From UHGV virus genome UHGV-1710763: a DNA stretch of 28,122 nt; one strand, written 5' to 3'. The notes below the pieces were generated by a model, which was not told the DNA's origin, did not search any database, and worked only from the letters and a program-made list of their open reading frames with translations. The DNA is from a virus. Shown one piece after another: positions 633 to 19,850 of the stretch. Each line of letters begins with the position of its first letter. Positions within the stretch are counted from its first letter, which is position 1. A program made the translations under genes and the position numbers.

Positions 633-1095
633 ACGTCTATCCAATCCTTATACAATCCCTTTCCCTCACCTTTCCAGAATCTTATCAGACCTTAAAAGCA
701 ATAACTCTATAGTCTACGCTATAACCTCTTATCAAATCAACTTAAATATAAGCCCATAACCCGAAAGGGAAGGGCAACCGTTTAAACGCTCTATAAAGCT
801 CTATAACAGCCTTATCAACCTAACTTAAGGGATTGCATTAACTCACCCTAAAAAGCCCTTTATAAAGCTTCCCAGAGACTTAAAAGAATCTTATAAGGGT
901 GTAAGCTTTATCGTCTCGTTAGTATTCTTGTGAATATCTAAAAAGGCTTGATAGTGTCTAAAAAGTATGTTATAGGGGCTATAAAGTTACTTTGAAGTAG
1001 CTTAAAAGTTACGTAAAAGAGGCTATAAAGTTACGTAAATGCTAGCCCCCTTAACATTTTCTTAACAATTTCTTAACAATCCCTACATAGTTATG

Positions 1096-1620
1096 CTTTT
1101 AAGGCACTTGTTAGCAACTTGTTAAATCTCTGTTAAGACCACGTAAAAGCCTTGTAAGAGTCTTTGACATAGCCTTAAAAGCTCCTGTAAAGCCCTATAA
1201 AGAGTTATCTGTACAGTTGAGGGGTAAATACTAGGAAGAGACTTAAAAGAGGCTATAAAGAGCTATAGAGGGCTTTTAAGAGGTATGTTTAAAGAATCAC
1301 TAAGAAGCAAAGGGAACGATAAGAAAAGAGATAGTGACCATGTTAATAGCTTGATAAAAAGATTAAACACTTGTTAGAAACTTGTTAATTATCTTAACAA
1401 AATAACTCTTAACATTTAACTACTTAGCCCTTGTTAGTCATTTGTTTAGATTCTGTAAAGCCTATTCAGCACTTGTTAGAAAACTGTTACGCCCTTGTTA
1501 GTTCTGTTAAGAATCTGTTAAGACCTTTGAAGAGTTGTTAAGAAGATGTGAGAACTGTTAAGAGATTGTTAAGGATATTTTAAAATTTTGCAAAGTACTT
1601 GTAAGGGAGCTGTTAAGGGC
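1096..1620. repeat. array of CTTGTTAG / CTGTTAAG / TTGTTAAG octamers (15 or more copies, irregular spacing)
   Basis: For example acttgttagcaacttgttaaatctctgttaag (1107-1137) and cttgttagttctgttaagaatctgttaagacc (1493-1525). Confidence 0.65.
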
Positions 1621-1985
1621 TACCAAGCAGATATACATCATGAGGTAGATTCTACCGAATCAACTAGACAGATATTTTTGAGTTCCTTCAAAGACCCTAA
1701 AAAATGACTTGACAGTCCTATTTTATAAAAATTTTAAGATTCTGAATAATTACCTATACAGTCTTTTAAAAATACAGGTAGAAACAGGCTTATAAGATAC
1801 CTTGTTAGTACCGTGTTAGACCTTGTGAGATAAGGTCTGTAAAGATATTCCTGTTAAGTTTGTTAAAACAGTCTATATAGAGGCTTAGTAGTACCTAGTG
1901 AACACCTATAGAGAGTGTCATAGCTAACCTAGAGATTAAGAGGTGTATAGGAGCTTCTAAGAGGGTATAGAGAGATGGTTAAGAT

Positions 1986-2080
1986 GATTGTATAGGTTGT
2001 TTAGAAGGCTTGTTAGAAGAGTGTTTAGATGGCTATTTAGAAGGGCTATACAGAGGGCTATTAAGACCACTAGATAGTTA
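1986..2080. repeat. tandem ~12-bp iteron-like repeats (GNNTGTTTAGAA x4, then GGGCTATACAGA / GGGCTATTAAGA)
   Basis: ggttgtttagaa|ggcttgttagaa|gagtgtttagat|ggctatttagaa|gggctatacaga|gggctattaaga read in register. Confidence 0.6.
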
Positions 2081-2213
2081 CTAAGATACTATATAGTACT
2101 ATATAACTATATATAGAGAGTAAGATTAAGAAGGTTGTTAAGAAGGATAGATATTTTATTCACATATGATGGTGACCCAGAGGTTGGGACAACCGATAAA
2201 ATTTTATAAAAAT

Positions 2214-2238
2214 TAAAAAGCCCCCAATTAAGGAGGCT
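2214..2238 (-). terminator. Rho-independent terminator ending the leftward operon
   Basis: Minus-strand reading AGCCTCC-TTAATT-GGGGGCT followed by TTTTT, 12 nt past the stop of the 2250..2468 gene. Confidence 0.55.
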
Positions 2239-2249
2239 CTTAAGATATT

Positions 2250-3325: not shown

Positions 3326-3540
3326 TTTCCAATCCCTCTCAATCGTTTATTCCACTCAAGGTCAACAAGTCTTTGCAGGACTTTCCCTCTAGGTGTTACA
3401 CCTTTTAAATCTGCATCGTAGCAACGGTAAAAGTCACCTTCAGCGTGTTTACCGTAGCATTTTCTGATATTCTGACTCCTACGATATTGTTCTAATAGGG
3501 ACAGTTTGTAGTAATCTTCAACTGTAGTTAGTTTTTTCAT
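3322..3540 (-). CDS. hypothetical protein (72 aa)
   Basis: ORF-track ORF; 4-nt start/stop overlap with the downstream gene. Confidence 0.5.
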   Translation of the reverse strand: MKKLTTVEDYYKLSLLEQYRRSQNIRKCYGKHAEGDFYRCYDADLKGVTPRGKVLQRLVDLEWNKRLRGIGK

Positions 3541-8765: not shown

Positions 8766-8818
8766 TATAAATACTTAGAAGATTACTTAAAAGGTTCCTC
8801 TAAAAAGGCTATTTAAAC

Positions 8819-8838
8819 AGATATCTTTCTGGATATCT
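8819..8838. promoter_or_regulatory. 7-bp inverted repeat AGATATC-N6-GATATCT (possible operator)
   Basis: Perfect palindrome arms read directly in the region between the divergent gene blocks. Confidence 0.3.
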
Positions 8839-8886
8839 ATCTTTTATCTTAAAAGCCTTTTAAGAGGTCTTATAAGAGGCATACCA

Positions 8887-9258
8887 ATGAAAAACAGAAC
8901 AAACAAAGGCCAGTTTAAAAAAGGCCAGTCTGGAAACCCATCTGGAAGACCCAAAGGCTCTCGTAACAAAAGTTCACTCGTAAAAGCTCAACTGACCATT
9001 GATAATTCTGCTGAGTTTGCTGCAAAGTTGTTTGAGGCGATTGTTACAAGGGACGCTGCTAAGCTTGCAGAGTTCGGGTTAAACACAGACGACGTAACCA
9101 TCAAGAGTATGATTGAGGTCGGTAAAACTATCATGACTCACTCAGCAGGTGAGATGAAAGCCATTGCAGCAGACACTAAGAAGACTCCTGATAATGGTGG
9201 TCAACAACAGACAGATAACAAACCAACGTTCTCTGCTGTAGCGACTCTTAAAAAATAA
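8887..9258 (+). CDS. hypothetical protein with N-terminal basic GNPSGRPKGSRNK motif (possible nucleic-acid binding)
   Basis: ORF-track ORF starting at an ATG; the motif resembles basic N-termini of phage DNA-binding proteins. Confidence 0.55.
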   Translation: MKNRTNKGQFKKGQSGNPSGRPKGSRNKSSLVKAQLTIDNSAEFAAKLFEAIVTRDAAKLAEFGLNTDDVTIKSMIEVGKTIMTHSAGEMKAIAADTKKTPDNGGQQQTDNKPTFSAVATLKK

Positions 9259-9339: not shown

Positions 9340-10755
9340 ATGAGCGAATTATTTAAACATGCGCACCTTCATGCAGGTCGAACTGAAAATGGTGCTGTAA
9401 ACCATACTTCATCAATGTCTGCTCTTGTAGACTTTTACAAAGCTGCTGGTTCAAGCCGTAGCAATGTAGAAATCTTACCAGACCTGTTCTACAAAGCTTT
9501 GCGTGAGGATGTTGATGTTGCAGTTCGTATTTTACTGCATATGCGAGATGTACGAGAAGGTATGGGTGAGCGTAAAGCCTTCAGAACTGTTTTGCTTCAA
9601 GCAATTGAAGATAAAGTTTTAGAGCCTACACAGGTTCTTCGCATTATGGATAAGATTGCAGAACTTGGTCGTTTTGATGACTTCAAAATCTTCGTAGGTA
9701 CTCGTTTCGAGACAGATGCCTTCAAACATTTAGAAGCAGCATTACTAGACCCTGCAACAGCAGGTTTGGCAGCTAAGTGGTTACCACGAGTAAAACCACG
9801 TCACAAACAGTTTGTAAAACGTTTCTGCAAGTTTGCAAACTTGAGTGAGAAGGAGTATCGCACACTGTTATCTGCACTGTCTGATACGGTTGAGCAAAAA
9901 ATCTCTGCTAATGAGTTTGGTAAGATTGACTACAGTAAGATTCCTTCACTTGCTGCTGCACGTTACCAAAAACTCTTTAACCGTAAAGATGGAGAACGCT
10001 ACAAAGCTTACATTGAGTCCTTATCAAAGGGCGAGACTAAGATTAATGCTGGTGCTGTTTATCCATACGATGTGATTAAATCTGTTAAGTATGGTAATGC
10101 AGATGTTGCTAATGAGCAGTGGAAAGCACTACCAAACTGGATGGCAGAGGGTGAAAACATTCTATGTATGTCTGATGTTTCAAGTTCAATGTCTTGGGTG
10201 AATTTTGGTTCAATTACTGCTCTTGATATTGGTGTTTCACTTGCATTGTATGTAGCAGAACGTAATACAGGTTGCTTTAAGAATGAGTTGATGGTTTATT
10301 CAACAAACCCTCACTTCATTGAACTGAGTGGTGATTTACGAAACCGTCATCGTCAGGTGATGCGACACGTTGAATATGGCTCAACTAACTTACAAGCAGC
10401 TTTTGACCGTATTCTTGAGACAGGTAAAAGAAACAACTTGACTCAGAAAGATATGCCAAGTAAGCTTATCATCTTCTCCGATATGGAGTTCAATCAGGTT
10501 GATGGAGCTAACGGTCGTACAAACTTTGAAGCAATTCAGAGTAAGTACAAAAAAGCTGGATATGAGATGCCACAACTGGTATTCTGGTACTTAGCAAACC
10601 GTAATGGCACTTGCGAAGTATCTGTTAAGGATAACGGTGTAGCAATGGTATCTGGTTTCTCTCCAGCCACTTTAAAAGCTTTGCTTGGTGGTGAGAAGTT
10701 TGACCCAATCAGCGTAATGCTCAAAGCAGTAATGATTGACCGTTATATCTGGTAA
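9340..10755 (+). CDS. Ro60/TROVE-like protein: alpha-helical N-terminal region plus C-terminal vWA domain with MIDAS motif (Rsr-like)
   Basis: MIDAS DxSxS in ILCMSDVSSSMSW; C-terminal IIFSDMEF; YPYDVIKSV segment; helical N-terminus. These parallel Ro60 segments as recalled from memory (HPFHILIAL, LLAVDVSASMN, VFIVFTDNE). Confidence 0.55.
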   Translation: MSELFKHAHLHAGRTENGAVNHTSSMSALVDFYKAAGSSRSNVEILPDLFYKALREDVDVAVRILLHMRDVREGMGERKAFRTVLLQAIEDKVLEPTQVLRIMDKIAELGRFDDFKIFVGTRFETDAFKHLEAALLDPATAGLAAKWLPRVKPRHKQFVKRFCKFANLSEKEYRTLLSALSDTVEQKISANEFGKIDYSKIPSLAAARYQKLFNRKDGERYKAYIESLSKGETKINAGAVYPYDVIKSVKYGNADVANEQWKALPNWMAEGENILCMSDVSSSMSWVNFGSITALDIGVSLALYVAERNTGCFKNELMVYSTNPHFIELSGDLRNRHRQVMRHVEYGSTNLQAAFDRILETGKRNNLTQKDMPSKLIIFSDMEFNQVDGANGRTNFEAIQSKYKKAGYEMPQLVFWYLANRNGTCEVSVKDNGVAMVSGFSPATLKALLGGEKFDPISVMLKAVMIDRYIW

Positions 10756-10765
10756 AAAGTTTTAA

Positions 10766-10802
10766 AAAGGGTATTGACAATGTGTTTGATACCCTTTAAT
10801 AT
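10766..10802 (+). promoter_or_regulatory. sigma70-like promoter (TTGACA-17-TAATAT) embedded in a 9-bp-stem hairpin just after the Ro60-like gene
   Basis: TTGACA 10774-10779, TAATAT 10797-10802; inverted repeat AAAGGGTAT (10766-10774) / ATACCCTTT (10789-10797). Confidence 0.55.
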
Positions 10803-10864
10803 TTTCTACATAGAAACGAAATGAGAGCTTTTCTAAGATACTGAAAAATATTTTAAAAAAGTTC

Positions 10865-10894
10865 TTGACAATCACTAAAAAATAATGTTAAAGT
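10865..10894 (+). promoter_or_regulatory. sigma70-like promoter ahead of the first tRNA
   Basis: TTGACA at 10865-10870; TAAAGT at 18-nt spacing; AAAAAAGTTCTTGACA upstream context. Confidence 0.45.
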
Positions 10895-10920
10895 GGTTAC
10901 ATAGAGTTTGAAAAGTTTAT

Positions 10921-10997
10921 CTCTGTTTAGCTCAGCTTGGTAGAGCGTTCCGTTTGGGGCGGTAAGGCCGGAGGTTCAAGTCCTCCAACAGAGACCA
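10921..10997 (+). tRNA. tRNA-Pro (anticodon TGG)
   Basis: Hand-folded cloverleaf: acceptor CTCTGTT / AACAGAG, D-arm GCTC..GAGC, anticodon loop TTTGGGG, T-arm GGAGG-TTCAAGT-CCTCC, encoded CCA. Confidence 0.7.
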
Positions 10998-11004
10998 AAT
11001 TAAT

Positions 11005-11082
11005 GTTCCAGTAGACAAAATGGTAAAGTCACCACTCTTTCAAAGTGGATATCTGAGGGTTCAAATCCCTTCTGGAACGCCA
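11005..11082 (+). tRNA. tRNA-Glu (anticodon TTC)
   Basis: Acceptor GTTCCAG / CTGGAAC; anticodon stem CCACT / AGTGG with loop CTTTCAA; T-loop TTCAAAT; CCA. Confidence 0.75.
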
Positions 11083-11173
11083 GTTTTGACAGAAGACCAA
11101 TTACAGCAAACTTAATCTTATTCATCTGAAGGTAAATCGGACAAAGAAGAGATTTGGTCTGGTCATTAAGAAT

Positions 11174-11250
11174 TGCGGGTATAGAGAAAGGGCGTCTCAC
11201 ATGTCTCATTAGCATGGTATCGGCAGGTTCGACTCCTGCACCCGCCTCCA
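11174..11250 (+). tRNA. tRNA with CAT anticodon (Met, fMet or Ile-lysidine; identity unresolved)
   Basis: Anticodon stem CATGT / GCATG with loop CTCATTA; T-arm GCAGG-TTCGACT-CCTGC; acceptor has a 1:72 mismatch; CCA. Confidence 0.65.
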
Positions 11251-11334
11251 AATTTACAGAAGACCGTTTACAGCAATACTTATTAAATTTTTAGCGGAAA
11301 AAATTGAAATATACGGTCTGGTAATACTAAACAT

Positions 11335-11411
11335 GGTTAGGAAGCACATAAGGTATGTGCGGTCGCCTGTTAAGCGAATGGCACAGGGTTCGAATCCCTG
11401 ACTAACCGCCA
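11335..11411 (+). tRNA. tRNA-Asn (anticodon GTT)
   Basis: Acceptor GGTTAGG / ACTAACC; D-arm GCAC..GTGC; loop CTGTTAA; T-arm CAGGG-TTCGAAT-CCCTG; CCA. Confidence 0.75.
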
Positions 11412-11480
11412 AATTTAGGAGAGAAGCAATTGCTCACCGATTTGTAAGGTGCAAGTCCTTAGCCTGAATAGAAATTAAAT

Positions 11481-11568
11481 GTGTCGTTATCCCGTAGATG
11501 GTAGCGGTGGGGACTGTAAATCCCTTGTCATTGAGACTCGGTAGGTTCGACTCCTACACGGCACACCA
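11481..11568 (+). tRNA. tRNA-Tyr (anticodon GTA), class II with long variable arm
   Basis: Acceptor GTGTCGT / ACGGCAC; anticodon stem GGGGA / TCCCT with loop CTGTAAA; ~15-nt variable arm; T-arm GTAGG-TTCGACT-CCTAC; CCA. Confidence 0.65.
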
Positions 11569-11573
11569 ATAAA

Positions 11574-11651
11574 GGTTATGTAGTTTAATTTGGTTAAAAT
11601 ACTCCCCTGTCACGGGAGATGATGAGGGTTCAAATCCCTTCGTAACCGCCA
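11574..11651 (+). tRNA. tRNA-Asp (anticodon GTC)
   Basis: Acceptor GGTTATG / CGTAACC; anticodon stem CTCCC / GGGAG with loop CTGTCAC; T-loop TTCAAAT; CCA. Confidence 0.75.
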
Positions 11652-11834
11652 ATTTTGAGAGGGCTATTTAGCCCCTCCCTTAAAGGGTTCTTACGAGTAT
11701 CCTTTAAAGGAGCAGAAGACCAAATACAGCAAGTTACTTAAAATTTCAAGCCAATTTAATTTTGAAAAATTTAAAACTTGGTCTGGCTCAACAAATTTAC
11801 AGAAGACCGTTTACAGCAAAACTTAAACAATCTA

Positions 11835-11907
11835 TTTCTCCGGTAAAGAAAAGGCGAAGGTTCGATTCCTTCACTCGGCAGATGTCGAGTTGGTGTAATG
11901 GTAGCAC
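11835..11907 (+). ncRNA. circularly permuted tRNA-like element (anticodon-like hairpin, T-arm, acceptor stem closed by an AGAT loop, D-arm); candidate Y-RNA-like tRNA mimic
   Basis: Order read directly: TTTCT-CCGGTAA-AGAAA, GAAGG-TTCGATT-CCTTC, ACTCGGC-AGAT-GTCGAGT (7 bp), TG, GTG-TAATGGTAG-CAC; no 5' acceptor partner upstream and no 3' half downstream. Confidence 0.35.
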
Positions 11908-11932
11908 TTAAGATGATAAACAACGGTCTGGT

Positions 11933-12076
11933 AATTATCTTTGTAGATAAGTTATTAAGCTTACCTGTGAGTATGCGACCACAAAGGGTGAAAGGGTAAA
12001 TTCTAGATTTAAACCTAACAAGGCACATCGCTACAGACCTTAAGCAAGTCTGGGTAGCTTATCTACAAAGATAATT
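11933..12076. repeat. perfect 18-19-bp inverted repeat flanking a ~106-bp segment (long hairpin, possible RNase III site or miniature element)
   Basis: ATTATCTTTGTAGATAAG at 11934-11951 is the exact reverse complement of CTTATCTACAAAGATAAT at 12058-12075. Confidence 0.6.
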
Positions 12077-12080
12077 TAAT

Positions 12081-12156
12081 GGAAGTGTAGCAGAATGGTG
12101 ATGCGGCAGACTTTTAATCTGACAGGCGATGGGTTCGAATCCCTCCACTTCTACCA
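12081..12156 (+). tRNA. tRNA-Lys (anticodon TTT)
   Basis: Acceptor GGAAGTG / CACTTCT; anticodon loop CTTTTAA; T-loop TTCGAAT; CCA; paralogue of the Lys(CTT) gene at 13309. Confidence 0.75.
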
Positions 12157-12161
12157 AAAAT

Positions 12162-12238
12162 GGTTCAGTCGCAGATAAGGTAATGCAAGGGTTTCATAAG
12201 CCCTATGAATGTGGGTTCGATTCCCACCTGAACCTCCA
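12162..12238 (+). tRNA. tRNA with CAT anticodon (second copy; Met / fMet / Ile2 unresolved)
   Basis: Acceptor GGTTCAG / CTGAACC perfect; anticodon stem AGGGT / GCCCT with loop TTCATAA; T-arm GTGGG-TTCGATT-CCCAC; CCA. Confidence 0.7.
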
Positions 12239-12239
12239 A

Positions 12240-12315
12240 GCTGGTATAGTTAAGAAGGTTATAACACTCCCCTGATAAGGGAACATCGGTGGTTCGATTC
12301 CACCTACCAGTACCA
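12240..12315 (+). tRNA. tRNA-Ile (anticodon GAT)
   Basis: D-arm GTTA..TAAC; anticodon loop CTGATAA; T-arm GGTGG-TTCGATT-CCACC; CCA. Confidence 0.7.
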
Positions 12316-12330
12316 ATTTCAATAAAGTTG

Positions 12331-12359
12331 TTGACATTGAGATGTGACTACTTTATAGT
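12331..12359 (+). promoter_or_regulatory. strong sigma70-like promoter inside the tRNA island (TTGACA-17-TATAGT)
   Basis: TTGACA 12331-12336, exactly 17-nt spacer, TATAGT 12354-12359, with the AATAAAGTTGTTGACA upstream context. Confidence 0.6.
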
Positions 12360-12562
12360 AACCTTAGTTTTCGTTGCGTAGCGTCTATTTTGCAAATTTA
12401 AAATAAATGCAAACGACAATGTTTTTCTGGCAGTAGCTTGATAGGCTAAACACCAGTGAGGTCTTCCAATCCCTCATCAAAGAATTTGGCGTACTAGCCC
12501 ACGGTATGATTAATAAGGTGGGCATCTTTAAGGGCTTTCTAAGAGAGTCTTTAAAGATTAAT

Positions 12563-12639
12563 GCACCCTTAGTTCAATTGGATAGAGCAACGGTCTTCTA
12601 AATCGTTAGTTACAGGTTCGAATCCTGTAGGGTGTACCA
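12563..12639 (+). tRNA. tRNA-Arg (anticodon TCT)
   Basis: Acceptor GCACCCT / AGGGTGT; D-arm GTTC..GAGC; anticodon stem ACGGT / ATCGT with loop CTTCTAA; T-arm ACAGG-TTCGAAT-CCTGT; CCA. Confidence 0.75.
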
Positions 12640-12780
12640 ATTAGTTAGCAGATTACTTAGACGACCTAAGCGGGTCTTCCTGTAGGGAGGTGGTCTGTAT
12701 CTCATGTTTTCCAGAACATGTAAATAATCTGAGAAGGGGCTTTACAGTGTTGAGATAATACGGTAAGCTTCGAATTATAG

Positions 12781-12867
12781 TATGGGACGATGTTAAGACT
12801 CTAAGGCATGAGCAACGGCTTCCAACACCGTTTCAAAGGGGTTCAACTCATCCGTCCCATGCCAAAG
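12781..12867 (+). ncRNA. unresolved tRNA-like structured element (11-bp terminal stem, 9-nt-loop hairpin with CTTCCAA, T-loop-like GGGGTTCAA, ends GCCA)
   Basis: TATGGGACGATG pairs with CATCCGTCCCATG; internal hairpin AACGG-CTTCCAACA-CCGTT; no canonical cloverleaf could be drawn. Confidence 0.3.
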
Positions 12868-12877
12868 TCTTATTAGG

Positions 12878-12965
12878 GGTAGGTAGCGGCTAATGGTAGC
12901 CAAACAGTCTTGAAAACTGTTGCCACTGTAGAGATACGGTGAGGGTTCGACTCCTTTACTTACCG
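12878..12965 (+). tRNA. tRNA-Ser (anticodon TGA), class II; CCA not encoded
   Basis: Acceptor GGTAGGT / ACTTACC; anticodon stem ACAGT / ACTGT perfect with loop CTTGAAA; long variable arm; T-loop TTCGACT. Confidence 0.6.
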
Positions 12966-13223
12966 CCTAATAAGATTTTACACCGTCCATGCTTGCTCGC
13001 ATTTTCGGTTTATCCCTCGTGTATTGTCGTACACACTGATAAAGCACCTAGTAGGTGTCACGGAGAAGAGATAATATCAAGCTCTCCAAAGGTTCTAGCC
13101 ACCGGATTAAACAAGACTATGCAAAGACCTTTTTAGGTCTTTTTAGAGGGCTTCTAAGGTTATTACAGCTTGTTGTGGAACCTTGTTGCTTAGGTTCTTA
13201 GAAGTTCTCTAAAAAGATTTAAT

Positions 13224-13301
13224 GGGAGATTGACGGTAATTGGTAAACCTACCATCCTTAGAAGTTGGTGTTTGAGGGTTCGAATCCCTTGTCTCCTACC
13301 A
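13224..13301 (+). tRNA. tRNA, anticodon provisionally TAG (Leu) on a class-I-length scaffold; identity uncertain
   Basis: Acceptor GGGAGAT / GTCTCCT (two G-U pairs); loop CTTAGAA between CCATC / GTTGG (one mismatch); T-arm GAGGG-TTCGAAT-CCCTT; CCA; D-arm irregular. Confidence 0.5.
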
Positions 13302-13308
13302 AATTAAT

Positions 13309-13384
13309 GCAGGTGTAGCAAAATGGTTATGCGGCTGACTCTTAATCAGTAAGACGATGGGTTCAATTCCCTCCACCTGTACCA
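13309..13384 (+). tRNA. tRNA-Lys (anticodon CTT)
   Basis: Acceptor GCAGGTG / CACCTGT; anticodon stem GCTGA / TCAGT with loop CTCTTAA; T-loop TTCAATT; CCA. Confidence 0.75.
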
Positions 13385-13391
13385 AACAATG

Positions 13392-13467
13392 GGGGTCATA
13401 GTTTATATGGTTAAAATTCGAGTTTTGCAAACTTGGGAACTGAGTTCAATTCTCAGTGACTCCACCA
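13392..13467 (+). tRNA. tRNA-Ala (anticodon TGC)
   Basis: Acceptor GGGGTCA / TGACTCC; anticodon stem CGAGT / ACTTG with loop TTTGCAA; T-arm CTGAG-TTCAATT-CTCAG; CCA. Confidence 0.75.
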
Positions 13468-13473
13468 ATTAGT

Positions 13474-13548
13474 GCATCCATAGTTTAAACGGGAAAATTA
13501 CAGTCTTCCAAACTGAGGTTGAGGGTTCGATTCCCTCTGGATGCTCCA
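13474..13548 (+). tRNA. tRNA-Gly (anticodon TCC)
   Basis: Acceptor GCATCCA / TGGATGC perfect; loop CTTCCAA; T-arm GAGGG-TTCGATT-CCCTC; CCA. Confidence 0.75.
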
Positions 13549-13562
13549 AATTAAGGTGTGAT

Positions 13563-13976
13563 ATGAAAATATGCAGTACTTGCAGAATACCAAAAGATGA
13601 AAGCTTATTCCATAAGAATAAGAACAAGAAAGACGGTCTTCAAAGTCAATGCAAAGATTGTGCAAGACTTCGTGATGCAAAGAGTTATCAAGCAAATGAT
13701 AAAAGGAAAGAGGCTATTAAAAGCACTCGTAACTTCAAGAGAGAGCATAACAAGACTCTAGCTAGAAGGTACAAAGCTTTATGCAAATGTCATATATGTG
13801 GTGAGAAAGAACCAGTTGCACTGGATTTACACCATACAGACCCTTCCCAGAAAGATTTGAATCCTGCATCACTTTATTCATACTCCACAAAAAGATTAAA
13901 AGATGAAATCAGAAAGTGCATTGTCTTGTGCGCTAACTGTCACAGAAAAGTACATGCTGGTATCATAAAAGTTTAA
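13563..13976 (+). CDS. HNH family endonuclease (free-standing homing-endonuclease-like gene)
   Basis: Cys pairs CKDC and CKCHIC plus an HNH core (LDLHHTD ... N ... CANCHRKVH) in the translation; sits between tRNA-Gly and tRNA-Thr. Confidence 0.7.
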   Translation: MKICSTCRIPKDESLFHKNKNKKDGLQSQCKDCARLRDAKSYQANDKRKEAIKSTRNFKREHNKTLARRYKALCKCHICGEKEPVALDLHHTDPSQKDLNPASLYSYSTKRLKDEIRKCIVLCANCHRKVHAGIIKV

Positions 13977-13977
13977 T

Positions 13978-14054
13978 GCTGCTTTCGTATAATTGGCTAT
14001 TACACATCCCTTGTAAGGATGGAAATGCAGGTTCGAGTCCTGTGAGCAGCACCA
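13978..14054 (+). tRNA. tRNA-Thr (anticodon TGT)
   Basis: Acceptor GCTGCTT / GAGCAGC; anticodon stem CATCC / GGATG perfect with loop CTTGTAA; T-loop TTCGAGT; CCA; starts 2 nt after the HNH stop codon. Confidence 0.8.
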
Positions 14055-14149
14055 ATTCAGAGGTCAAGTGAAAGACCGCTGGTGTCAACTGAAGACCGTA
14101 ACAAATTCCACGGAGTTGAGTTAGCGGCACAACTTCAGACCTCTTTCAT

Positions 14150-14224
14150 ACTCGCTTAGTTTATATGGTAAAACATCACCCTTACAAGATGAAGAGAAAG
14201 GTTCAAGCCCTTTAGTGAGTACCA
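14150..14224 (+). tRNA. tRNA-Val (anticodon TAC)
   Basis: Acceptor ACTCGCT / AGTGAGT; D-arm GTTT..AAAC; loop CTTACAA; T-arm AAAGG-TTCAAGC-CCTTT; CCA. Confidence 0.65.
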
Positions 14225-14225
14225 T

Positions 14226-14303
14226 GTTCCAGTATCCCAATTGGCAGAGGATGCAAGCTCAAACCTTGTACTAGTGACGGTTCGAATCCGTCTTGGAACA
14301 CCA
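14226..14303 (+). tRNA. tRNA with CAA anticodon (Leu-type) but only a 6-nt variable region
   Basis: Acceptor GTTCCAG / TTGGAAC; anticodon stem GCAAG / CTTGT with loop CTCAAAC; T-arm GACGG-TTCGAAT-CCGTC; A73; CCA. Confidence 0.6.
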
Positions 14304-14308
14304 ATTTT

Positions 14309-14384
14309 GCAGGATTAGTTCAAATGGATAGAGCAACAGTCTACGAAGCTGTTAATAGGGGTTCGAATCCCTTATCCTGCGCCA
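14309..14384 (+). tRNA. tRNA-Arg (anticodon ACG)
   Basis: Acceptor GCAGGAT / ATCCTGC perfect; D-arm GTTC..GAGC; anticodon stem ACAGT / GCTGT with loop CTACGAA; T-loop TTCGAAT; CCA. Confidence 0.8.
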
Positions 14385-14403
14385 ATTTAAAGAGGCTATT
14401 TAG

Positions 14404-14961
14404 ATGAGATATTTGAAGTATGCTTCATGGATTTTCTTAGCTTTGTTAGAGCCATTTGCAGCAATCTTAGCAGTTATCTTAGCACCTTTTGTAGTTCCAT
14501 TCTACAGTGAGAAGAAAGGACACTTACCTTTCGGATTCAGATGGATGGAGACATATGACAACCCAATTGATGGTGATGAAGGTCACGTTAAAAGATGGGC
14601 TAATATTAGATGGATTGGTAAACTAGGTGTCTACATGCAAAGAGTCGGATGGCTCTGGAGAAACAAAGCTTATAACTTCTCTTACCATGTATTAGGAAGA
14701 GATGTAAAAGATGTTACTAAGTGGAAAGGTAATATCAACGTAAGTTCTAACCCTGAAGATAATCAGACAGGTTATCTCCTAATGTGGAACAGCAATGCTT
14801 GGGGATTATTCGCTTTTATCCCATCAATTAAAATCTTTGGTAAACAGTTCTACTGGAGAATTTATATTGGGTGGAAGCTAAAAAGTGTTGTCCCAGAAGA
14901 AAGAGCATTCTCAAGGGAAAGAGTTATGTTGGCATTCTTTATTCATCCACTAAGAAAGTAA
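14404..14961 (+). CDS. hypothetical membrane protein (hydrophobic N-terminus, Trp-rich)
   Basis: ORF-track ORF; N-terminal hydrophobic stretch WIFLALLEPFAAILAVILAPFVV; embedded between tRNA genes. Confidence 0.55.
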   Translation: MRYLKYASWIFLALLEPFAAILAVILAPFVVPFYSEKKGHLPFGFRWMETYDNPIDGDEGHVKRWANIRWIGKLGVYMQRVGWLWRNKAYNFSYHVLGRDVKDVTKWKGNINVSSNPEDNQTGYLLMWNSNAWGLFAFIPSIKIFGKQFYWRIYIGWKLKSVVPEERAFSRERVMLAFFIHPLRK

Positions 14962-14969
14962 AGATTTAA

Positions 14970-15045
14970 AGGGGATTAGTTTACAAGGTTAAAACCTCGG
15001 TCTTTGAAATCGAAGAAGTTGGTTCAATTCCAACATCCCCCGCCA
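14970..15045 (+). tRNA. tRNA-Gln (anticodon TTG)
   Basis: D-arm GTTT..AAAC; anticodon stem TCGGT / ATCGA with loop CTTTGAA; T-arm GTTGG-TTCAATT-CCAAC; weak 1:72 pair; CCA. Confidence 0.7.
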
Positions 15046-15047
15046 AT

Positions 15048-15126
15048 GCTCCATTACTCCAATTGGCAGAGAGGCCAGACTTAAAATCTGTGTTATGTAT
15101 CGGTTCGAATCCGATATGGAGTACCA
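15048..15126 (+). tRNA. tRNA with TAA anticodon (Leu-type) but only a 7-nt variable region
   Basis: Acceptor GCTCCAT / ATGGAGT; anticodon loop CTTAAAA; T-arm ATCGG-TTCGAAT-CCGAT; A73; CCA. Confidence 0.6.
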
Positions 15127-15131
15127 AATTT

Positions 15132-15207
15132 AGCGGTATAGCATAACTGGCAATGCAACAGTCTCTGAAGCTGTCTTATTAAGGTTCAAATCCTTATGCC
15201 GCTGCCA
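15132..15207 (+). tRNA. tRNA-Gln (anticodon CTG)
   Basis: Acceptor AGCGGTA / TGCCGCT; anticodon stem ACAGT / GCTGT with loop CTCTGAA; T-arm TAAGG-TTCAAAT-CCTTA; CCA. Confidence 0.7.
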
Positions 15208-15238
15208 CTTCTAAGGGTTCTTACGAGAGTCCTTAAAT

Positions 15239-15314
15239 GTGGCCTTATCATAAATGGTAATGACCCATGCTGTGAACATGGTCTATACGGGTTCAAATCC
15301 CGTAGGTCACCCCA
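15239..15314 (+). tRNA. tRNA-His (anticodon GTG)
   Basis: Acceptor GTGGCCT / AGGTCAC; D-arm TCAT..ATGA; anticodon stem CCATG / CATGG perfect with loop CTGTGAA; C73 discriminator; CCA. Confidence 0.75.
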
Positions 15315-15321
15315 ATTTATA

Positions 15322-15396
15322 GTCCAAGTAGCTTATATGGTTAAAGCGCGTGTCTGAAAAACATGAGAAGAGGGTTCAAATCCCACTGGACTACCA
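15322..15396 (+). tRNA. tRNA-Phe (anticodon GAA); acceptor register ambiguous
   Basis: D-arm GCTT..AAGC; anticodon stem CGTGT / ACATG with loop CTGAAAA; T-loop TTCAAAT; ends ACCA. Confidence 0.65.
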
Positions 15397-15412
15397 ATTT
15401 CAAAGGTGCTTA

Positions 15413-16147
15413 ATGAAAGAGATGACAGAACAAGGTAAGGAGATTTTTAATCTCTTAAAAACCGGTAAAGGGTTTTCTAACCCACTTATTACTGGTGCAG
15501 CAGTTCTCGGTGGAACCGTAGCTGCCTCTACATCACTTGTAAGCTCTATTAGCTCTGTAACAGACCCTACAACGAAGGAGAAACTTGTTGCTGCTGGACT
15601 TACAACAGTTCTTCTAAACAGCTTTACAACAAGCCTGACAAGCACTACAGCAACTACTAAGACCCTAACAGACTACGGTCAAAAGTCTATTGATGAGTTT
15701 TCATCACGTATGCAGGTGGCAAAGGGATATTCCAATGTTATGGGTGCAGCAGGAGAACAAGTTGGTTGTACACCATTCAGTGGTATTATGGGTGTTGCTA
15801 CAGAGTATGGTCAGCAAGCTATTGACATGATTAACAGCACACTAGACAGTGTTAACGGTGTGTTAAGTGACTTACAAGATGCTATTGACAAGGGTCTTGA
15901 TACTGTTTCTGATTTAGCTAACCAAGCTGTAAGTAAGATTAATGAAGGTATTTCAAAGATTACAGCTTATGCAGATGAAGTTGTGCAGATGATTGAAGAA
16001 GAAGCTGCCCTTATTGCAGAGTACCTTAAAACGAATATCAATGGGTTCTTAGCAGGTATCTTACCAGACTGGTTTGATGATGCCTGTAAAACTGGTGTAA
16101 TTGACACTATTGCAACACCAGAAATGAAGAACGCATTACAGAAATAA
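15413..16147 (+). CDS. hypothetical Ser/Thr-rich protein; start moved downstream of the track ORF (15350) to the first ATG clear of tRNA-Phe
   Basis: Track ORF 15350..16147 overlaps the tRNA at 15322-15396; the in-frame ATG at 15413 has AAAGGTG upstream. Confidence 0.55.
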   Translation: MKEMTEQGKEIFNLLKTGKGFSNPLITGAAVLGGTVAASTSLVSSISSVTDPTTKEKLVAAGLTTVLLNSFTTSLTSTTATTKTLTDYGQKSIDEFSSRMQVAKGYSNVMGAAGEQVGCTPFSGIMGVATEYGQQAIDMINSTLDSVNGVLSDLQDAIDKGLDTVSDLANQAVSKINEGISKITAYADEVVQMIEEEAALIAEYLKTNINGFLAGILPDWFDDACKTGVIDTIATPEMKNALQK

Positions 16148-16148
16148 T

Positions 16149-16241
16149 GGAAGATTAACCCTAAAAGGTAAGGGAGCAGTTTGCTAAACTGCCAGTAGCT
16201 GAGAAATCGGTGTACCAGTTCAAGTCTGGTATCTTCCTCCA
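16149..16241 (+). tRNA. tRNA-Ser (anticodon GCT), class II with long variable arm
   Basis: Acceptor GGAAGAT / ATCTTCC perfect; anticodon stem GCAGT / ACTGC perfect with loop TTGCTAA; ~20-nt variable arm; T-arm ACCAG-TTCAAGT-CTGGT; CCA. Confidence 0.8.
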
Positions 16242-16245
16242 ATTT

Positions 16246-16321
16246 GAATCCGTGACAGAAATGGCTATGTGCCTGTCTGCAAAACAGGTTTATAAGGGTT
16301 CGAGTCCCTTCGGATTCTCCA
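16246..16321 (+). tRNA. tRNA-Cys (anticodon GCA)
   Basis: Acceptor GAATCCG / CGGATTC perfect; anticodon stem CCTGT / ACAGG perfect with loop CTGCAAA; T-arm AAGGG-TTCGAGT-CCCTT; CCA. Confidence 0.8.
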
Positions 16322-16418: not shown

Positions 16419-16483
16419 ACAGAGTTATACTTTATAAGAAGCCTTATACAGTATGTCTCTGACGTACATTGTGGTTTCTCCTT

Positions 16484-16744: not shown

Positions 16745-16765
16745 TTCTATTTGCGGAGGCGCTTA

Positions 16766-18367
16766 ATGGACTTAAATGCTGTTAAGCAGAAGCGAGTGGA
16801 AGATGTTAGGAAAGTCCTAGCTGGAGAGTTGGGGCTTTCTGATGAAGTAAAAGAAATTATCAAATCATTCGGTAAAGACCCCTCTAAATTCCTTCCAACT
16901 CAAATTCTGACTTTATTAAGATACACACCAGACCAAGTTAGACTTATCTTCAAATTGATGACTGATAAGAACTATGTAGCCCCTCAGCCGGGTTCTCAAG
17001 AGGTCTTTTTAAATACTAATGCTGACTTGGTTCTCTATGGTGGTGCTGCTGGTGCTGGTAAAACTGCTGCATTGTTAATGGACTCTTTAAGATTTATTGA
17101 AGACCCTAACTATAATGCTGTATATTTCCGTCGAAATACAACACAGCTACAAGGTGGTTTATGGCCTGCTGCAAAGAAACTATTTGGTAAGTTTGGTGGG
17201 ATTCCTCACGAGCAGAAAATGACTATCACATTCCCTTCTGGGGCAACTATCAAGTTTACCTACCTAGAACTTGAAAAGCACGCTGAAGGTCATCAGGGTA
17301 TTGAATACTCAGCTATTTACTTTGACGAAGGTACACACTTCTCTGCTTCACAGATTTCATACCTACAAACCCGTCTACGTTCTGGTGCTGAAGGCGATTC
17401 ATACATGAAGATTTCCATGAACCCAGACAGAGACCATTTTATTTATGATTGGGTAGAACCATTCTTAGATGAAGAAGGTTATCCAGACCCTGAAAAGTGT
17501 GGTCGTATTCGTTGGTATGTAATGAACGATGGCGTGATGGTTTCTGATTGGGAGAGAGACAAGATTCTTGAAATGTTCCCTCTTGAGATTCCTCAAACAT
17601 ACACCTTCATCTCTGGTACGATTGATGATAACCCAATTCTTGACTTCTTAGAACCAAAGTATCGCGGTAAGCTTGAAACCAACACTCCTGTAAACGTTGC
17701 AAGACTTCGTTTCGGTAACTGGAAGGCTCGTGCAGAAGGTTCAAACTATTGGCAAAGACAATGGTGTGAGATTGTTGATTCACTCCCAGAAGATGTATTT
17801 GATGTTAGAGCATGGGACTTAGCAGCAACTTTACCATCTGAGATTAACCCTAATCCAGACTGGACAGCAGGTGTTAAGATGGGTAAATCTAAAAAAGACG
17901 GTTGCTATTATATCATTGATGTAGTAAGATTTAGAGATAGACCCTCTGGAGTCGAAACACAAATTAATTTGACTGCTGAAAGTGACGGTAAGCGAACTGG
18001 TATTTTTATCCCTCAAGACCCAGGCGCTGCTGGTAAATCCTACGCAACATCCCTCATCAGGAAACTTGCCGAGAAAGGCTATCGTGCAAGAGCTAAACCA
18101 ACAAATAAAGATAAAGTTACCCGCTTTGCGGGATTTTCTGCTGCTTCTGAAGCTGGACTTGTAAAAGTCTTGAGAGGTAGTTGGAATGAAGCTTACTTTC
18201 AAGAGCTTGAAGGCTTTTGTGGTGACGGCAAAACTAAAGATGACCAAGTGGATGCTACCAGTGATGCTTTCAACAGTCTGAACGAAGTTAAATTATTCAA
18301 GCCACCATCAATGGGTGCTCACACAGACTTAGTGAGAGGAAACCCATATGAGGGGCTTAGACGTTGA
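16766..18367 (+). CDS. terminase large subunit
   Basis: Walker A motif GGAAGAGKT in LVLYGGAAGAGKTAALL; ~530 aa; track ORF starts at a TTG at 16751, so the ATG at 16766 with GGAGG 5 nt upstream is preferred. Confidence 0.8.
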   Translation: MDLNAVKQKRVEDVRKVLAGELGLSDEVKEIIKSFGKDPSKFLPTQILTLLRYTPDQVRLIFKLMTDKNYVAPQPGSQEVFLNTNADLVLYGGAAGAGKTAALLMDSLRFIEDPNYNAVYFRRNTTQLQGGLWPAAKKLFGKFGGIPHEQKMTITFPSGATIKFTYLELEKHAEGHQGIEYSAIYFDEGTHFSASQISYLQTRLRSGAEGDSYMKISMNPDRDHFIYDWVEPFLDEEGYPDPEKCGRIRWYVMNDGVMVSDWERDKILEMFPLEIPQTYTFISGTIDDNPILDFLEPKYRGKLETNTPVNVARLRFGNWKARAEGSNYWQRQWCEIVDSLPEDVFDVRAWDLAATLPSEINPNPDWTAGVKMGKSKKDGCYYIIDVVRFRDRPSGVETQINLTAESDGKRTGIFIPQDPGAAGKSYATSLIRKLAEKGYRARAKPTNKDKVTRFAGFSAASEAGLVKVLRGSWNEAYFQELEGFCGDGKTKDDQVDATSDAFNSLNEVKLFKPPSMGAHTDLVRGNPYEGLRR

Positions 18368-18383
18368 TAGCTAGGTGAGAAGA

Positions 18384-19850
18384 ATGGCAGATATTACAGA
18401 AACACAAGAAAGCTTACCACCATTTAGAATGGGTGAAGTAGGTTCTTTGGGTCTGAAGGTTAAGAATGGAATAATCTATGAAGAACCTCGTCAGGCACTA
18501 AGGTTTCCTGAAAGTATTAAAACTTTCCAATTAATGATGCGTGACCCTGCTGTAGCAGCATCTGTAAATATTATTAAGATGTTTGTCAGAAAAGTCAACT
18601 GGAGATTCGTACCTCCAAAGGGAAAAGAGCAAGACCCTAAAATGCTTGAAAGAGCAGACTTCTTTAATTCTTTAATGGATGACATGGAGCATGATTGGGC
18701 AGATTTTATTAATTCTGTAATGTCATTCTGCACTTATGGGTTCTGTGTTAATGAAAAGGTTTATAAGAAGCGTCAGGGTAAGAAAGGAAAGTACCAGTCT
18801 AAATTTGATGATGGTCTAATTGGATGGGCTAAATTACCAATCAGAAACCAATCAACACTTGATAAGTGGTATTTTGACGAAGACTTTAGAAAAGTTACTG
18901 GTGTTAGACAGAATCTGAGAAATGTTTCACATATTGCTGGAGCAATTAATCTTGGAGAAAGACCACTAACAAGAAAACTCCCACGAGCTAAATTCATGCT
19001 GTTTAAGTATGACGATGAATATGGAAACCCAGAAGGTCGTTCACCATTACTTAATGCCTATGTGCCGTGGAAGTATAAAGTTCAGATTGAAGAGTACGAA
19101 GCAGTCGGTGTTTCAAGAGACTTGGTAGGTATGCCAAAAATTGGTTTACCACCAGATTATCTGGATGAAAATGCAGAACCTGAAAAGAAAGCTTTCGTAC
19201 AATACTGCAAAACTGTTGTTAACGATATGATTGCTAATGATAGAGCAGGTTTAATCTGGCCTAGATATATCGACCCAGATACTAAAGAGGATATTTTCGA
19301 GTTCTCATTAGTTTCTAGACAGGGTGCTAAAGCATACGATACAGGTTCTATTATTGACAGATATTCCAAGCAGATTATGATGGCATTTATGTCAGATGTT
19401 CTTGCTATGGGTCAGTCAAAATATGGTTCATTCTCTCTTGCAGACTCTAAGACAAGCTTACTAGCGATGTCAGTAGATATTCTGCTGAAGCAAATTAAGA
19501 ACGTAATTAACCGTGATTTAGTTGCACAGACTTATGCTCTTAATATGTGGGACGATGAAGAACATGTACAAATCACATATGATGATATCGAAACTCCAGA
19601 CCTTGAAGCAATTGGTTCTTATATCCAGAAGACTGTTGCAGTAGGTGCTTTGGAAGTTGACAAAGAGCTATCTAACAAGCTTAGAGAGCATATTGGTCTT
19701 CCTCCTGCTGATGAGTCTCAGCCAGTATCTGAAAAGCTTTCTCCAAATAGCCAAAGCCGTTCAGGAGATGGTTACAAGACCGCTGGAGAAGGTACTGCAA
19801 AGACACCTTCAGCGAAAGACCCAAGCACAGCAAATAAGGCAAATAAATAA
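18384..19850 (+). CDS. portal protein
   Basis: ~490 aa gene directly after the terminase, as in most tailed phages; track ORF starts at GTG 18375, ATG at 18384 preferred; acidic tail with basic C-terminus. Confidence 0.65.
   Translation: MADITETQESLPPFRMGEVGSLGLKVKNGIIYEEPRQALRFPESIKTFQLMMRDPAVAASVNIIKMFVRKVNWRFVPPKGKEQDPKMLERADFFNSLMDDMEHDWADFINSVMSFCTYGFCVNEKVYKKRQGKKGKYQSKFDDGLIGWAKLPIRNQSTLDKWYFDEDFRKVTGVRQNLRNVSHIAGAINLGERPLTRKLPRAKFMLFKYDDEYGNPEGRSPLLNAYVPWKYKVQIEEYEAVGVSRDLVGMPKIGLPPDYLDENAEPEKKAFVQYCKTVVNDMIANDRAGLIWPRYIDPDTKEDIFEFSLVSRQGAKAYDTGSIIDRYSKQIMMAFMSDVLAMGQSKYGSFSLADSKTSLLAMSVDILLKQIKNVINRDLVAQTYALNMWDDEEHVQITYDDIETPDLEAIGSYIQKTVAVGALEVDKELSNKLREHIGLPPADESQPVSEKLSPNSQSRSGDGYKTAGEGTAKTPSAKDPSTANKANK

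Follow-up and report, generated by a model that had tools for sequence, protein, structure and literature searches.

A gene-free stretch in a Felix O1-like phage genome holds a 580-bp direct terminal repeat among phased 11-bp motif arrays and is a likely packaging junction

The viral genome sequence UHGV-1710763, one strand of 28,122 nucleotides (the window, whose coordinates are used throughout), derives from a Felixounavirus, a Felix O1-like myovirus of the Ounavirinae, and carries between two convergent gene blocks a gene-free stretch of 1.6 kb (640-2240) that is 66% AT and crowded with short repeats. The original prediction had offered several functions for this stretch, which might be an origin of replication, serve in packaging or partition, or form a bank of promoters or of sites bound by a phage protein. 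The stretch holds a direct terminal repeat (DTR) of 580 bp together with both of its cleavage boundaries, which bears out the packaging option, and we conclude with good confidence that the gene-free DNA is the concatemer junction of a short-DTR phage, at which recognition, cutting and end duplication take place during packaging.

The locus is as devoid of genes as had been claimed, with no open reading frame (ORF) of 60 amino acids (aa) or more between 572 and 2250 and none above 39 aa in 573-2249. The largest ORFs in the latter interval (27-39 aa) mostly start with TTG or GTG, and the sole ATG ORF with a nearby Shine-Dalgarno-like sequence, 1285-1377, has counterparts without an ATG in SUSP1 and Moogle. 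The idea that the region might instead encode small translated genes finds no backing, the ORFs being at most 39 aa and not conserved in relatives. A megablast search with 600-2300 matched 257 phage records, nearly all from Felixounavirus and other Ounavirinae; in 198 the match extends over 80% or more of the query, with identities of 80-95%. The counterpart in Felix O1 is 12333-13978, between ORF23 and ORF24; in Felix O1, garuso and ASO1A no gene is annotated within the gap, the coding sequences (CDSs) under the match being those of the flanking genes only, and a few records have small CDSs annotated within it (in E9, for example, of 30-55 aa). All four Ounavirinae genera have a gene-free stretch of 1.4-1.7 kb at this place. 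The convergent terminators that were said to border the region were recovered by a terminator scan, at 611-627 on the + strand and at 2241-2216 on the − strand; both are annotated at homologous places in ASO1A and Moogle, and the part around the + strand terminator contains the invariant blocks TAGCCCCAGA and GGGGCTTTT.

The terminal repeat was placed at 1045-1624 from the ends of related genome records. HP1 (a Citrobacter phage of the genus Mooglevirus) has exact 570-bp copies at both ends, annotated as repeat_region 1-570 and 88766-89335, and E9 (an Escherichia phage, Felixounavirus) has an exact 580-bp repeat at both record ends; the two repeats map to the same interval of the window, where they start with GCCCCCTTAACA and end with GTTAAGGGCTACC. 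A search with 1045-1624 found the whole query at record position 1, together with a second copy, in six records (Ro111lw, SeKF_63, SPJ41, NBEco004, NBEco005 and HP1), and the record of Hena2 (an Erwinia phage, Kolesnikvirus) opens at the homologous left boundary. GenBank records that begin at this boundary number at least seven in total and represent three genera; exact start and end copies were verified for two, and the occurrence of one boundary in three genera supports fixed, non-permuted ends. The record starts of dune and BPS17W1 (near window position 2011) and of RPN213 were also considered as genome ends and were judged to be assembly breaks.

Published analyses have reported a 613-bp T7-like DTR in Ro111lw (PMC6454146), a DTR in E9 (PMC11737134) and short DTRs in the Kolesnikviruses Fifi106 and Fifi318 (PMC11984208), all by PhageTerm, as well as direct repeats at both termini of HP1 (PMC9120918); in the Felix O1 genome paper, short terminal repeats are deduced from genome size (PMC3185647). 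That the Felix O1-like group has short terminal repeats was thus known before. Keyword searches of the Felix O1 genome paper (PMC3185647) and of a Felixounavirus comparative paper (PMC8300805) found no passage on the gene-free region, and the paper on the Bas63 knockout library gives no data on the intergenic region. The compartmented arrays, the inverted TGTTAAG brackets, the invariant cut-site box and the 11-bp length steps set out below are undescribed in the papers searched.

The window contains one copy of the repeat because its assembly collapsed and was opened elsewhere; it is a permuted assembly that shows the concatemer-junction form. In the virion, 640-1044 would be the unique DNA that abuts the right-hand repeat copy, and 1625-2215 would abut the left-hand copy. 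The homologues of the repeat in 44 records fall into at least six length classes (559, 569-570, 579-582, 590-592, 599-603, 612-614 and 659 bp), and their lengths show periodicity with a resultant of 0.87 at a period of 11.0, a figure inflated by shared ancestry. A Felix O1-type terminal repeat was also seen, at full length and 92% identity, at 135884-136463 of GU169904.1, the 147-kb record of Staphylococcus phage SA1, which looks like a contaminated or chimeric public record.

The octamers singled out in the original prediction all fall into one frame, CTNNNNAG, and their excess over chance is real: the frame occurs 66 times in 640-2240, compared with 11.3 ± 3.2 (maximum 24) in 2000 Markov-1 simulations, and reaches 41 per kb in the region versus 10 per kb in the rest of the window. 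The motif CT[AT]4AG (class A) is 14 times denser in the region than elsewhere (13.1 versus 0.95 per kb) and YTGTTAR (class B) 20 times denser (11.3 versus 0.57 per kb). The three repeat classes described earlier are all present, namely CTTAAAAG, CTATAAAG and CTTATAAG; an array of CTTGTTAG and CTGTTAAG, with 14 of its 19 copies in 1045-1624; and a 12-bp tandem array at 2000-2066 (5.5 copies). What had been called a 500-bp array is the terminal repeat itself. The motifs are strongly biased to one strand (CTTGTTA 9 versus 0, CTATAAA 5 versus 0), and the spacing of octamer pairs has maxima at 10-11, 21-22, 32-33 and 43-44 bp, from which it follows that degenerate units of 11 bp make up the region. 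Strong intrinsic curvature from A-tract phasing was a borderline result, with an AA power of 12.6 against a simulated 99th percentile of 12.4. The compartments and borders of the junction are, from left to right (a slash marks the cut):

585-600: a second hairpin, GGGGCTAAATAGCCCC, directly before the + strand terminator
611-633, + strand: intrinsic terminator of the rightward early gene block, from the scan (stem-loop AGCCCCTCATAGGGGCT and a T run)
640-1044, + strand: left flank, a non-coding unique segment with a CT[AT]4AG array spaced about 11 bp apart (CTTAAAAG, CTATAAAG, CTAAAAAG, CTTATAAG) and C-rich linkers
1030-1056: left boundary box, GTTACGTAAATGCTA/GCCCCCTTAACA, cut between 1044 and 1045
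1045-1624, + strand: DTR of 580 bp, by homology to record ends
1050-1082, − strand: three 11-bp CTTAACA units (TGTTAAG on the minus strand, toward the left end); tandem period 11, 2.8 copies, 95% matches
1096-1290, + strand: CT[AT]4AG-type block within the repeat (CTTTTAAG, CTTAAAAG, CTGTAAAG, CTATAAAG, CTATAGAG); six strict copies in the DTR
1367-1620, + strand: forward YTGTTAR array to the right end of the repeat (CTTGTTAG, CTGTTAAG, TTGTTAAG), with two reversed copies at 1392-1415
1574-1595: conserved block GATATTTTAAAATTTTGCAAAG, about 30 bp inside the right repeat end, invariant or nearly so in three genera
1609-1637: right boundary box, CTGTTAAGGGCTACC/AAGCAGATATACA, cut between 1624 and 1625
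1625-2215, + strand: right flank, a non-coding unique segment with G-rich linkers and 20 CTN4AG copies
1640-1663: 24-bp indel ATGAGGTAGATTCTACCGAATCAA with the palindrome GGTAGA-T-TCTACC, just outside the right boundary
2216-2241, − strand: intrinsic terminator of the leftward gene block, from the scan

The two motif classes are distributed differently over these compartments, with 11 class A copies in the left flank, 6 in the left-central part of the repeat and 5 in part of the right flank, whereas class B is absent from the left flank and has 14 copies within the repeat and 5 to the right of it. The left-flank figure refers to strict CT[AT]4AG copies in 573-1044; the looser CTN4AG occurs 17 times in 640-1044, with a peak period of 11.1, and the block 879-898 is invariant. 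Class B is arranged in inverted arrays that bracket the repeat. The CTTAACA arm at 1050-1082 pairs as an inverted repeat with 1546-1583, and class B at the right repeat end runs forward to TGTTAAGGGCTACC; both ends of the virion chromosome therefore show TGTTAAGGG a few bases from the end. The inverted TGTTAAG arrays are found in the window, HP1 and Hena2, representing three genera. In Hena2 the arms are 46 nt long and 76% complementary, and 15 of the 19 plus-strand GTTAAGA copies in 45 kb fall in the terminal 0.82 kb. The number of CTTAACA units varies from 1 to 4 in the alignment of relatives.

Both boundaries are conserved in sequence. The left box is kept in 17 distinct sequences from three genera. 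Across the right boundary lies the longest invariant block of the region, 1616-1637 (AGGGCTACC/AAGCAGATATACA; 19 sequences, three genera), with GGGCTACC/AAGCAGATATACA unchanged in all 19. Each of the 25 loci that contain the region has a single copy of the 13-mer AAGCAGATATACA, which in HP1 and E9 stands directly after the DTR. The 13-mer persists in the Kolesnikviruses Tian and ST-3, and Hena2 has AAGTAGATATACA; almost nothing else aligns in this genus, with ATTTTGCAAAGG, which is kept as well, being the sole part of the region that blastn finds in Erwinia phages. On the basis of this pattern, the right boundary box is proposed to be a terminase cleavage and recognition site. Beyond it, the indel at 1640-1663 occurs sporadically (the window shares it with L009, L012 and Moogle, and the other aligned sequences lack it), and the right flank has an identity of 0.89-0.94 to relatives, with conserved blocks at 1718-1736 and 1784-1807 and CTATATAG tandems at 2086-2115. 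The record of Salmonella phage ST-3 (L028) has within its right flank, at about 3490-3520, a run of some 35 T that does not occur in Tian or Hena2 and is probably a sequencing or assembly artefact.

Conservation extends over the entire region. Compared with 16 Felixounavirus loci, the three non-coding compartments have identities of 0.81-0.96, versus 0.76-0.89 at third codon positions of the flanking genes; for the non-coding DNA against relatives, a range of 87-96% was also obtained. Against SUSP1 and Moogle, the non-coding DNA retains 0.74-0.84 identity, versus 0.51-0.53 at third positions and 0.70-0.81 at first and second positions. The region surpasses the third codon positions of the neighbouring genes in 18 of 18 comparisons, and these alignments demonstrate purifying selection on the whole non-coding stretch.

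The composition of the linkers divides the junction as well. Their GC skew is C-rich on the left (-0.18) and G-rich on the right (+0.27), with the turn from C-rich to G-rich falling within 1096-1290 and residing in the linkers between the motifs. The skew is opposite across the flanks 640-1000 and 1500-2240, so RNA that enters the junction from either side would be C-rich and G-poor. Inbound RNA from either convergent operon would carry pyrimidine-rich linkers every 11 nt, and a Rho-dependent backstop behind each intrinsic terminator is possible.

The original prediction had also pointed to related motifs elsewhere in the window. Their recurrence before the gene at 8887 was confirmed, with five CT[AT]4AG copies in 8786-8876 that form the sole other cluster in the 28-kb window; the proposed recurrence near 16430 (CTTTATAAGAAG) amounts to one isolated site outside the family pattern and was given no weight. 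The features concerned are:

8786-8876, + strand: class A cluster in the gene 8887 leader, preceded by tandem TTGACA boxes and grouped around CAGATATC...GGATATCTATC
8887-9258, + strand: candidate terminase small subunit, DUF5681, 123 aa (Pfam DUF5681, E 2e-14)
16751-18367, + strand: terminase large subunit, the expected nuclease/ATPase (Terminase_6N, Terminase_6C, phrog_979)
18375-19850: portal gene, after the large subunit

Gene 8887-9258 is annotated as hypothetical in current records, and its gene order in distant homologues makes it very likely to encode the small terminase subunit. The DUF5681 gene lies directly upstream of the large-subunit gene in five of five homologues outside the Ounavirinae; in the Ounavirinae and a marine relative (L041/L042) it heads the same operon, split from the large subunit by other DNA. 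In the window, the intervening segment (9340-16321) consists of non-coding DNA, a Ro60-like gene and a cluster of 26 tRNA genes (10921-16321). The Ro60/TROVE-like gene has DUF2828 and DUF7788 domains and matches a phrog labelled 'RNA-binding protein', and together with the tRNA island it looks like an insertion that split the usual pair of terminase genes. No assignment of DUF5681 as a small terminase subunit was found in the papers searched, among which the single one that mentions the family only lists it in a proteome. Protein P0022, labelled Staphylococcus aureus, is a DUF5681 fragment identical over its length to the protein of the window, and looks like another contaminated or chimeric record.

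An AlphaFold2 model of the 8887-9258 protein (mean predicted local distance difference test score, pLDDT, of 72) has a disordered stretch of 27 N-terminal residues followed by four helices, and a fold search of the model against the PDB returned no match with E below 5. The invariant motif GNPSGRPKGSRNK is located in the predicted disordered arm. The family core PsGRPKGSrNk and AT-hook 2 of human HMGA1 (PRGRPKGSKNKG; 2EZD) agree at 10 of 12 aligned positions, a weak match with an E value of 0.2. AT-hooks have an R-G-R-P core with flanking basic residues and bind A/T tracts in the minor groove. In the DUF5681 family, Ser, Asn or Ala replaces the first Arg of RGR, and the Pfam AT_hook model was not reported for the protein. 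The W-rich cores of class A would be suitable targets for an AT-hook-like arm, and TTGTTAG less so. We therefore put forward only tentatively, as a rather doubtful proposal, that DUF5681 proteins are small terminase subunits of a type not recognised before, in which an AT-hook-like arm (GRPKGSRNK) and not a helix-turn-helix reads the DNA. If this were true, the arms of a ring of DUF5681 subunits in the Ounavirinae would enter the minor grooves of CTWWWWAG cores one helical turn apart, wrapping the junction DNA and setting the register for nicking at the two boundaries. Such a ring would explain why the motifs are degenerate yet strictly spaced, why length changes only by 11 bp, and why the motif occurs in the leader (autoregulation). 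In distant phages, the few kb of sequence at hand around the DUF5681 genes showed no motif arrays.

Class A clusters have a wider distribution than the window reveals. In LF82P3, a complete 85-kb Felixounavirus genome, they occur at three places only: the terminal region, the leader of the small-terminase gene, and a divergent leader with the DNA polymerase gene on one side and an operon that includes primase/helicase on the other. The last of these (LF82P3, L044, 34554-34777) is laid out like the 8887 leader, with tandem TTGACA, CTTAAAAG-type octamers around a small palindrome, and CTTAAAAGAGG...ATG, which suggests shared leader-level control of the two operons. A similar class A cluster precedes the homologue of gene 8887 in Hena2.

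The combined observations suggest a model of packaging at this junction. Terminase would recognise the junction through the arrays of short motifs one helical turn apart, with the inverted TGTTAAG arrays pointing to both repeat ends. The large subunit would nick opposite strands at the boundary boxes TA/GCCCCC and GGGCTACC/AAGCAGATATACA, and strand-displacement synthesis over 580 bp would then provide each daughter genome with a full repeat, as has been proposed for T7, in whose models such synthesis duplicates the repeat. That the region is a bank of sites for a phage DNA-binding protein, as had been suggested, is plausible, and the binder of the arrays would most likely be the small terminase subunit encoded at 8887-9258. 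The flanking terminators and the C-over-G bias of read-through RNA would keep transcription out of the junction.

Several points weigh against this reading. The position of the repeat is deduced from homologous records, the ends of which were set by PhageTerm or by assembly, and the array-binding protein is a candidate that we infer. Conservation of the octamers (0.902) does not significantly exceed that of all other positions in the region (0.880; permutation p 0.17), pairwise Fisher tests being likewise non-significant (p 0.07-0.37), and is higher only than that of their adjacent 3-nt linkers (Wilcoxon p 2e-6). Clusters of CT[AT]4AG also occur in the leaders of two operons, and the Kolesnikvirus small-subunit leader has CTTAAAAG-type motifs and not the flank motif specific to Kolesnikvirus, CTTCTAAG, so co-variation gives no support for one protein reading both places. 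Class A may thus serve a regulator rather than terminase, be it the small terminase subunit or another protein. Finally, the large subunit here has Terminase_6N/6C domains and T7 gp19 is not known to be of this type, and we therefore treat the likeness to T7 as one of design rather than of descent.

A first alternative takes the leader clusters as the primary sites: CT[AT]4AG would be the operator of a DNA-binding regulator, of phage or host origin, that controls the late operon (that of the terminase small subunit) and the replication operon, with the terminal arrays titrating or storing this protein independently of packaging. The restriction of the clusters in the complete 85-kb genome to the terminal region and two divergent-promoter leaders favours such a regulatory sink, as does the retention of the leader cluster in Kolesnikvirus. 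However, the scheme explains neither the YTGTTAR arrays, which are clustered only in the repeat and right flank, nor the invariant boundary boxes; its regulator is hypothetical, and autoregulation by the small terminase subunit as the binder would be compatible with it. We regard it as doubtful.

A replication origin, in which the arrays would be initiator iterons and the AT-rich stretches unwinding elements that the terminal repeat merely overlaps, is unlikely. The stretch is indeed AT-rich and repetitive, its GC skew changes sign within the region, a conserved AT-rich palindrome (CTATTTTATAAAAATTTTA) lies at 1718-1736, and T7 has secondary origins near its left end. Yet DnaA boxes are not enriched (28 versus 37.6 expected in the window, with three weak ones in the region), and the units are 8-bp motifs in 11-bp repeats with more than 60 degenerate copies, versus the few iterons of 17-22 bp of an origin. 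No initiator gene adjoins the region and the neighbouring genes, of unknown function, resemble none, the skew switch sits in linkers between motifs, and cumulative skew over the window follows the direction of transcription, with a minimum near 8.5-9 kb. The origin option of the original prediction is thereby left without positive evidence, there being neither enriched DnaA boxes nor long iterons; an origin would in any case be compatible with a role in packaging. Nothing was found in support of a partition site, the phage being lytic. A headful pac site was rejected, since independent records share the repeat boundaries to the base and published PhageTerm analyses call a DTR and not headful packaging. 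Each of the three models of an origin, a headful pac site and a cos site thus conflicts with one or more of its defining properties.

That the region is a non-coding RNA, a set of small proteins or a promoter bank is highly unlikely. SD-like AAGAGG strings (resembling Shine-Dalgarno sequences) recur in the arrays, a conserved TTGACA is present at 1705-1710, and CDSs of 30-55 aa are annotated in some records such as E9. No Rfam family comes near threshold, however, the bank of sigma-70 promoters that had been suggested amounts to 8 sites versus 6.1 ± 2.6 in shuffles, terminators face inward on both sides, and the short, unconserved ORFs would have their frames broken by 11-bp indels. Least credible of all is a slippage-prone junk spacer between convergent terminators that grows and shrinks by 11-bp units: although its length varies in 11-bp steps, CTTAACA ranges from 1 to 4 copies and the octamers do not significantly exceed the average conservation of the region, the spacer idea is largely refuted by the 18 of 18 comparisons with third codon positions, by far the more so between genera, by the similar size in all four Ounavirinae genera and by invariant blocks of 19-24 bp.

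Some further observations concern the surroundings of the junction. The hairpin GGGGCTAAATAGCCCC and the AGATA that follows it (585-605) resemble the core of the 57-bp direct repeats (GGGGCTTAAAAGTCTGTAAAGTAAGCCCCAGATAAAG) that are described between early genes of Felix O1 in its genome paper (PMC3185647), and may be a recurring RNA-level element of the early region. On the other side, the 72-aa ORF 2250-2468 (− strand) is a chimera, its residues 1-39 resembling the start of phrog_7193 and residues 32-72 the end of phrog_4330; the two parts appear to match two separate Felix O1 genes near the junction, ORF25 and ORF24, and the source phage seems to have lost roughly 0.8 kb next to the left-end flank. 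Inside the 74-aa gene 2521-2745 (− strand), CTTCTCAGCCTT recurs with a period of 12 bp (5.7 copies at 2530-2597) and raises the counts of CTNNNNAG just beyond the region; this is coding repetition outside the arrays.

Felix O1-like phages are widely used in typing of Salmonella and E. coli, in biocontrol and in therapy. Most of their GenBank records are opened arbitrarily and leave the region unannotated or filled with spurious small ORFs, and several assemblies break inside it. A DTR defined to the base at 1045-1624 allows correct genome orientation and annotation, and shows engineers which DNA to leave undisturbed. The Ounavirinae junction is moreover large, highly structured and deeply sampled: it combines inverted arrays, an invariant cut-site box and length classes 11 bp apart, and natural variants of it number in the hundreds. 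The family also offers a candidate small subunit with a simple putative DNA-binding motif. To our knowledge, the way in which short-DTR phages recognise the junction and duplicate the repeat is unsettled, even for T7.

T7 and T3 have junctions comparable to the one described here, with a short exact direct terminal repeat and unique, sequence-defined ends (deduced here from the records of relatives). The ends of T7 have a 160-bp exact repeat and, over right flank, repeat and left flank, 13 copies of CCTAAAG with none on the other strand; in both systems, the repeat and its non-coding flanks are thus rich in a short A-rich motif, nearly always on one strand (CTTAAAAG, CTATAAAG and others here), the core TAAAG is common to both motif families, and packaging in both needs duplication of the repeat. 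The differences lie in scale and machinery. The repeat of 580 bp is 3.6 times as long as that of T7, and the motif copies, of which 1.6 kb contains more than 60 or about five times the T7 number, are regularly spaced at about 11 bp and accompanied by a second class, YTGTTAR, in inverted arrays at both repeat ends. The phage is a myovirus with a Terminase_6N/6C large subunit and a candidate DUF5681 small subunit, and its genes on both sides are transcribed toward the ends. Unlike T7, it has no phage RNA polymerase and uses that of the host, and a coupling of packaging to polymerase pausing of the T7 type therefore cannot apply.

Other phages share single elements of this design. The clusters of direct repeats in AT-rich non-coding DNA recall the iteron origins of lambda (ori), P1 (oriR) and P4 (ori/crr), but the units here are much shorter and far more numerous, DnaA boxes are not above chance, no initiator gene is adjacent and the region coincides with the physical ends of the genome. 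Non-permuted genomes with direct terminal repeats are also found in phiEco32 and SU10 (193 bp), in N4 with its short DTR and in T5 and SPO1 with long repeats; in these phages, compared by description only, no account of 11-bp length steps or inverted bracketing arrays was found. For SU10, the repeat ends were defined by sharp drop-offs in reads (PMC4281155).

Given the regular spacing of the motifs, the recognition sites of headful and cohesive-end phages are also of interest. The pacL and pacR sites of SPP1, the pac sites of P22 and Sf6 and the cosB site of lambda (bound by gpNu1) consist of short boxes integral helical turns apart, on which an oligomeric small subunit assembles to position the large-subunit nuclease at a nearby cut. 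Phages of these types have permuted headful genomes or cohesive ends, and their sites span 100-300 bp with a handful of boxes, usually in or beside the small-subunit gene. In contrast, the junction analysed here has exact terminal repeats and lies 7 kb from the candidate small-subunit gene, in whose leader only a small cluster is found; what it has in common with the pac and cosB sites is the use of repeated short motifs at integral helical-turn spacing.

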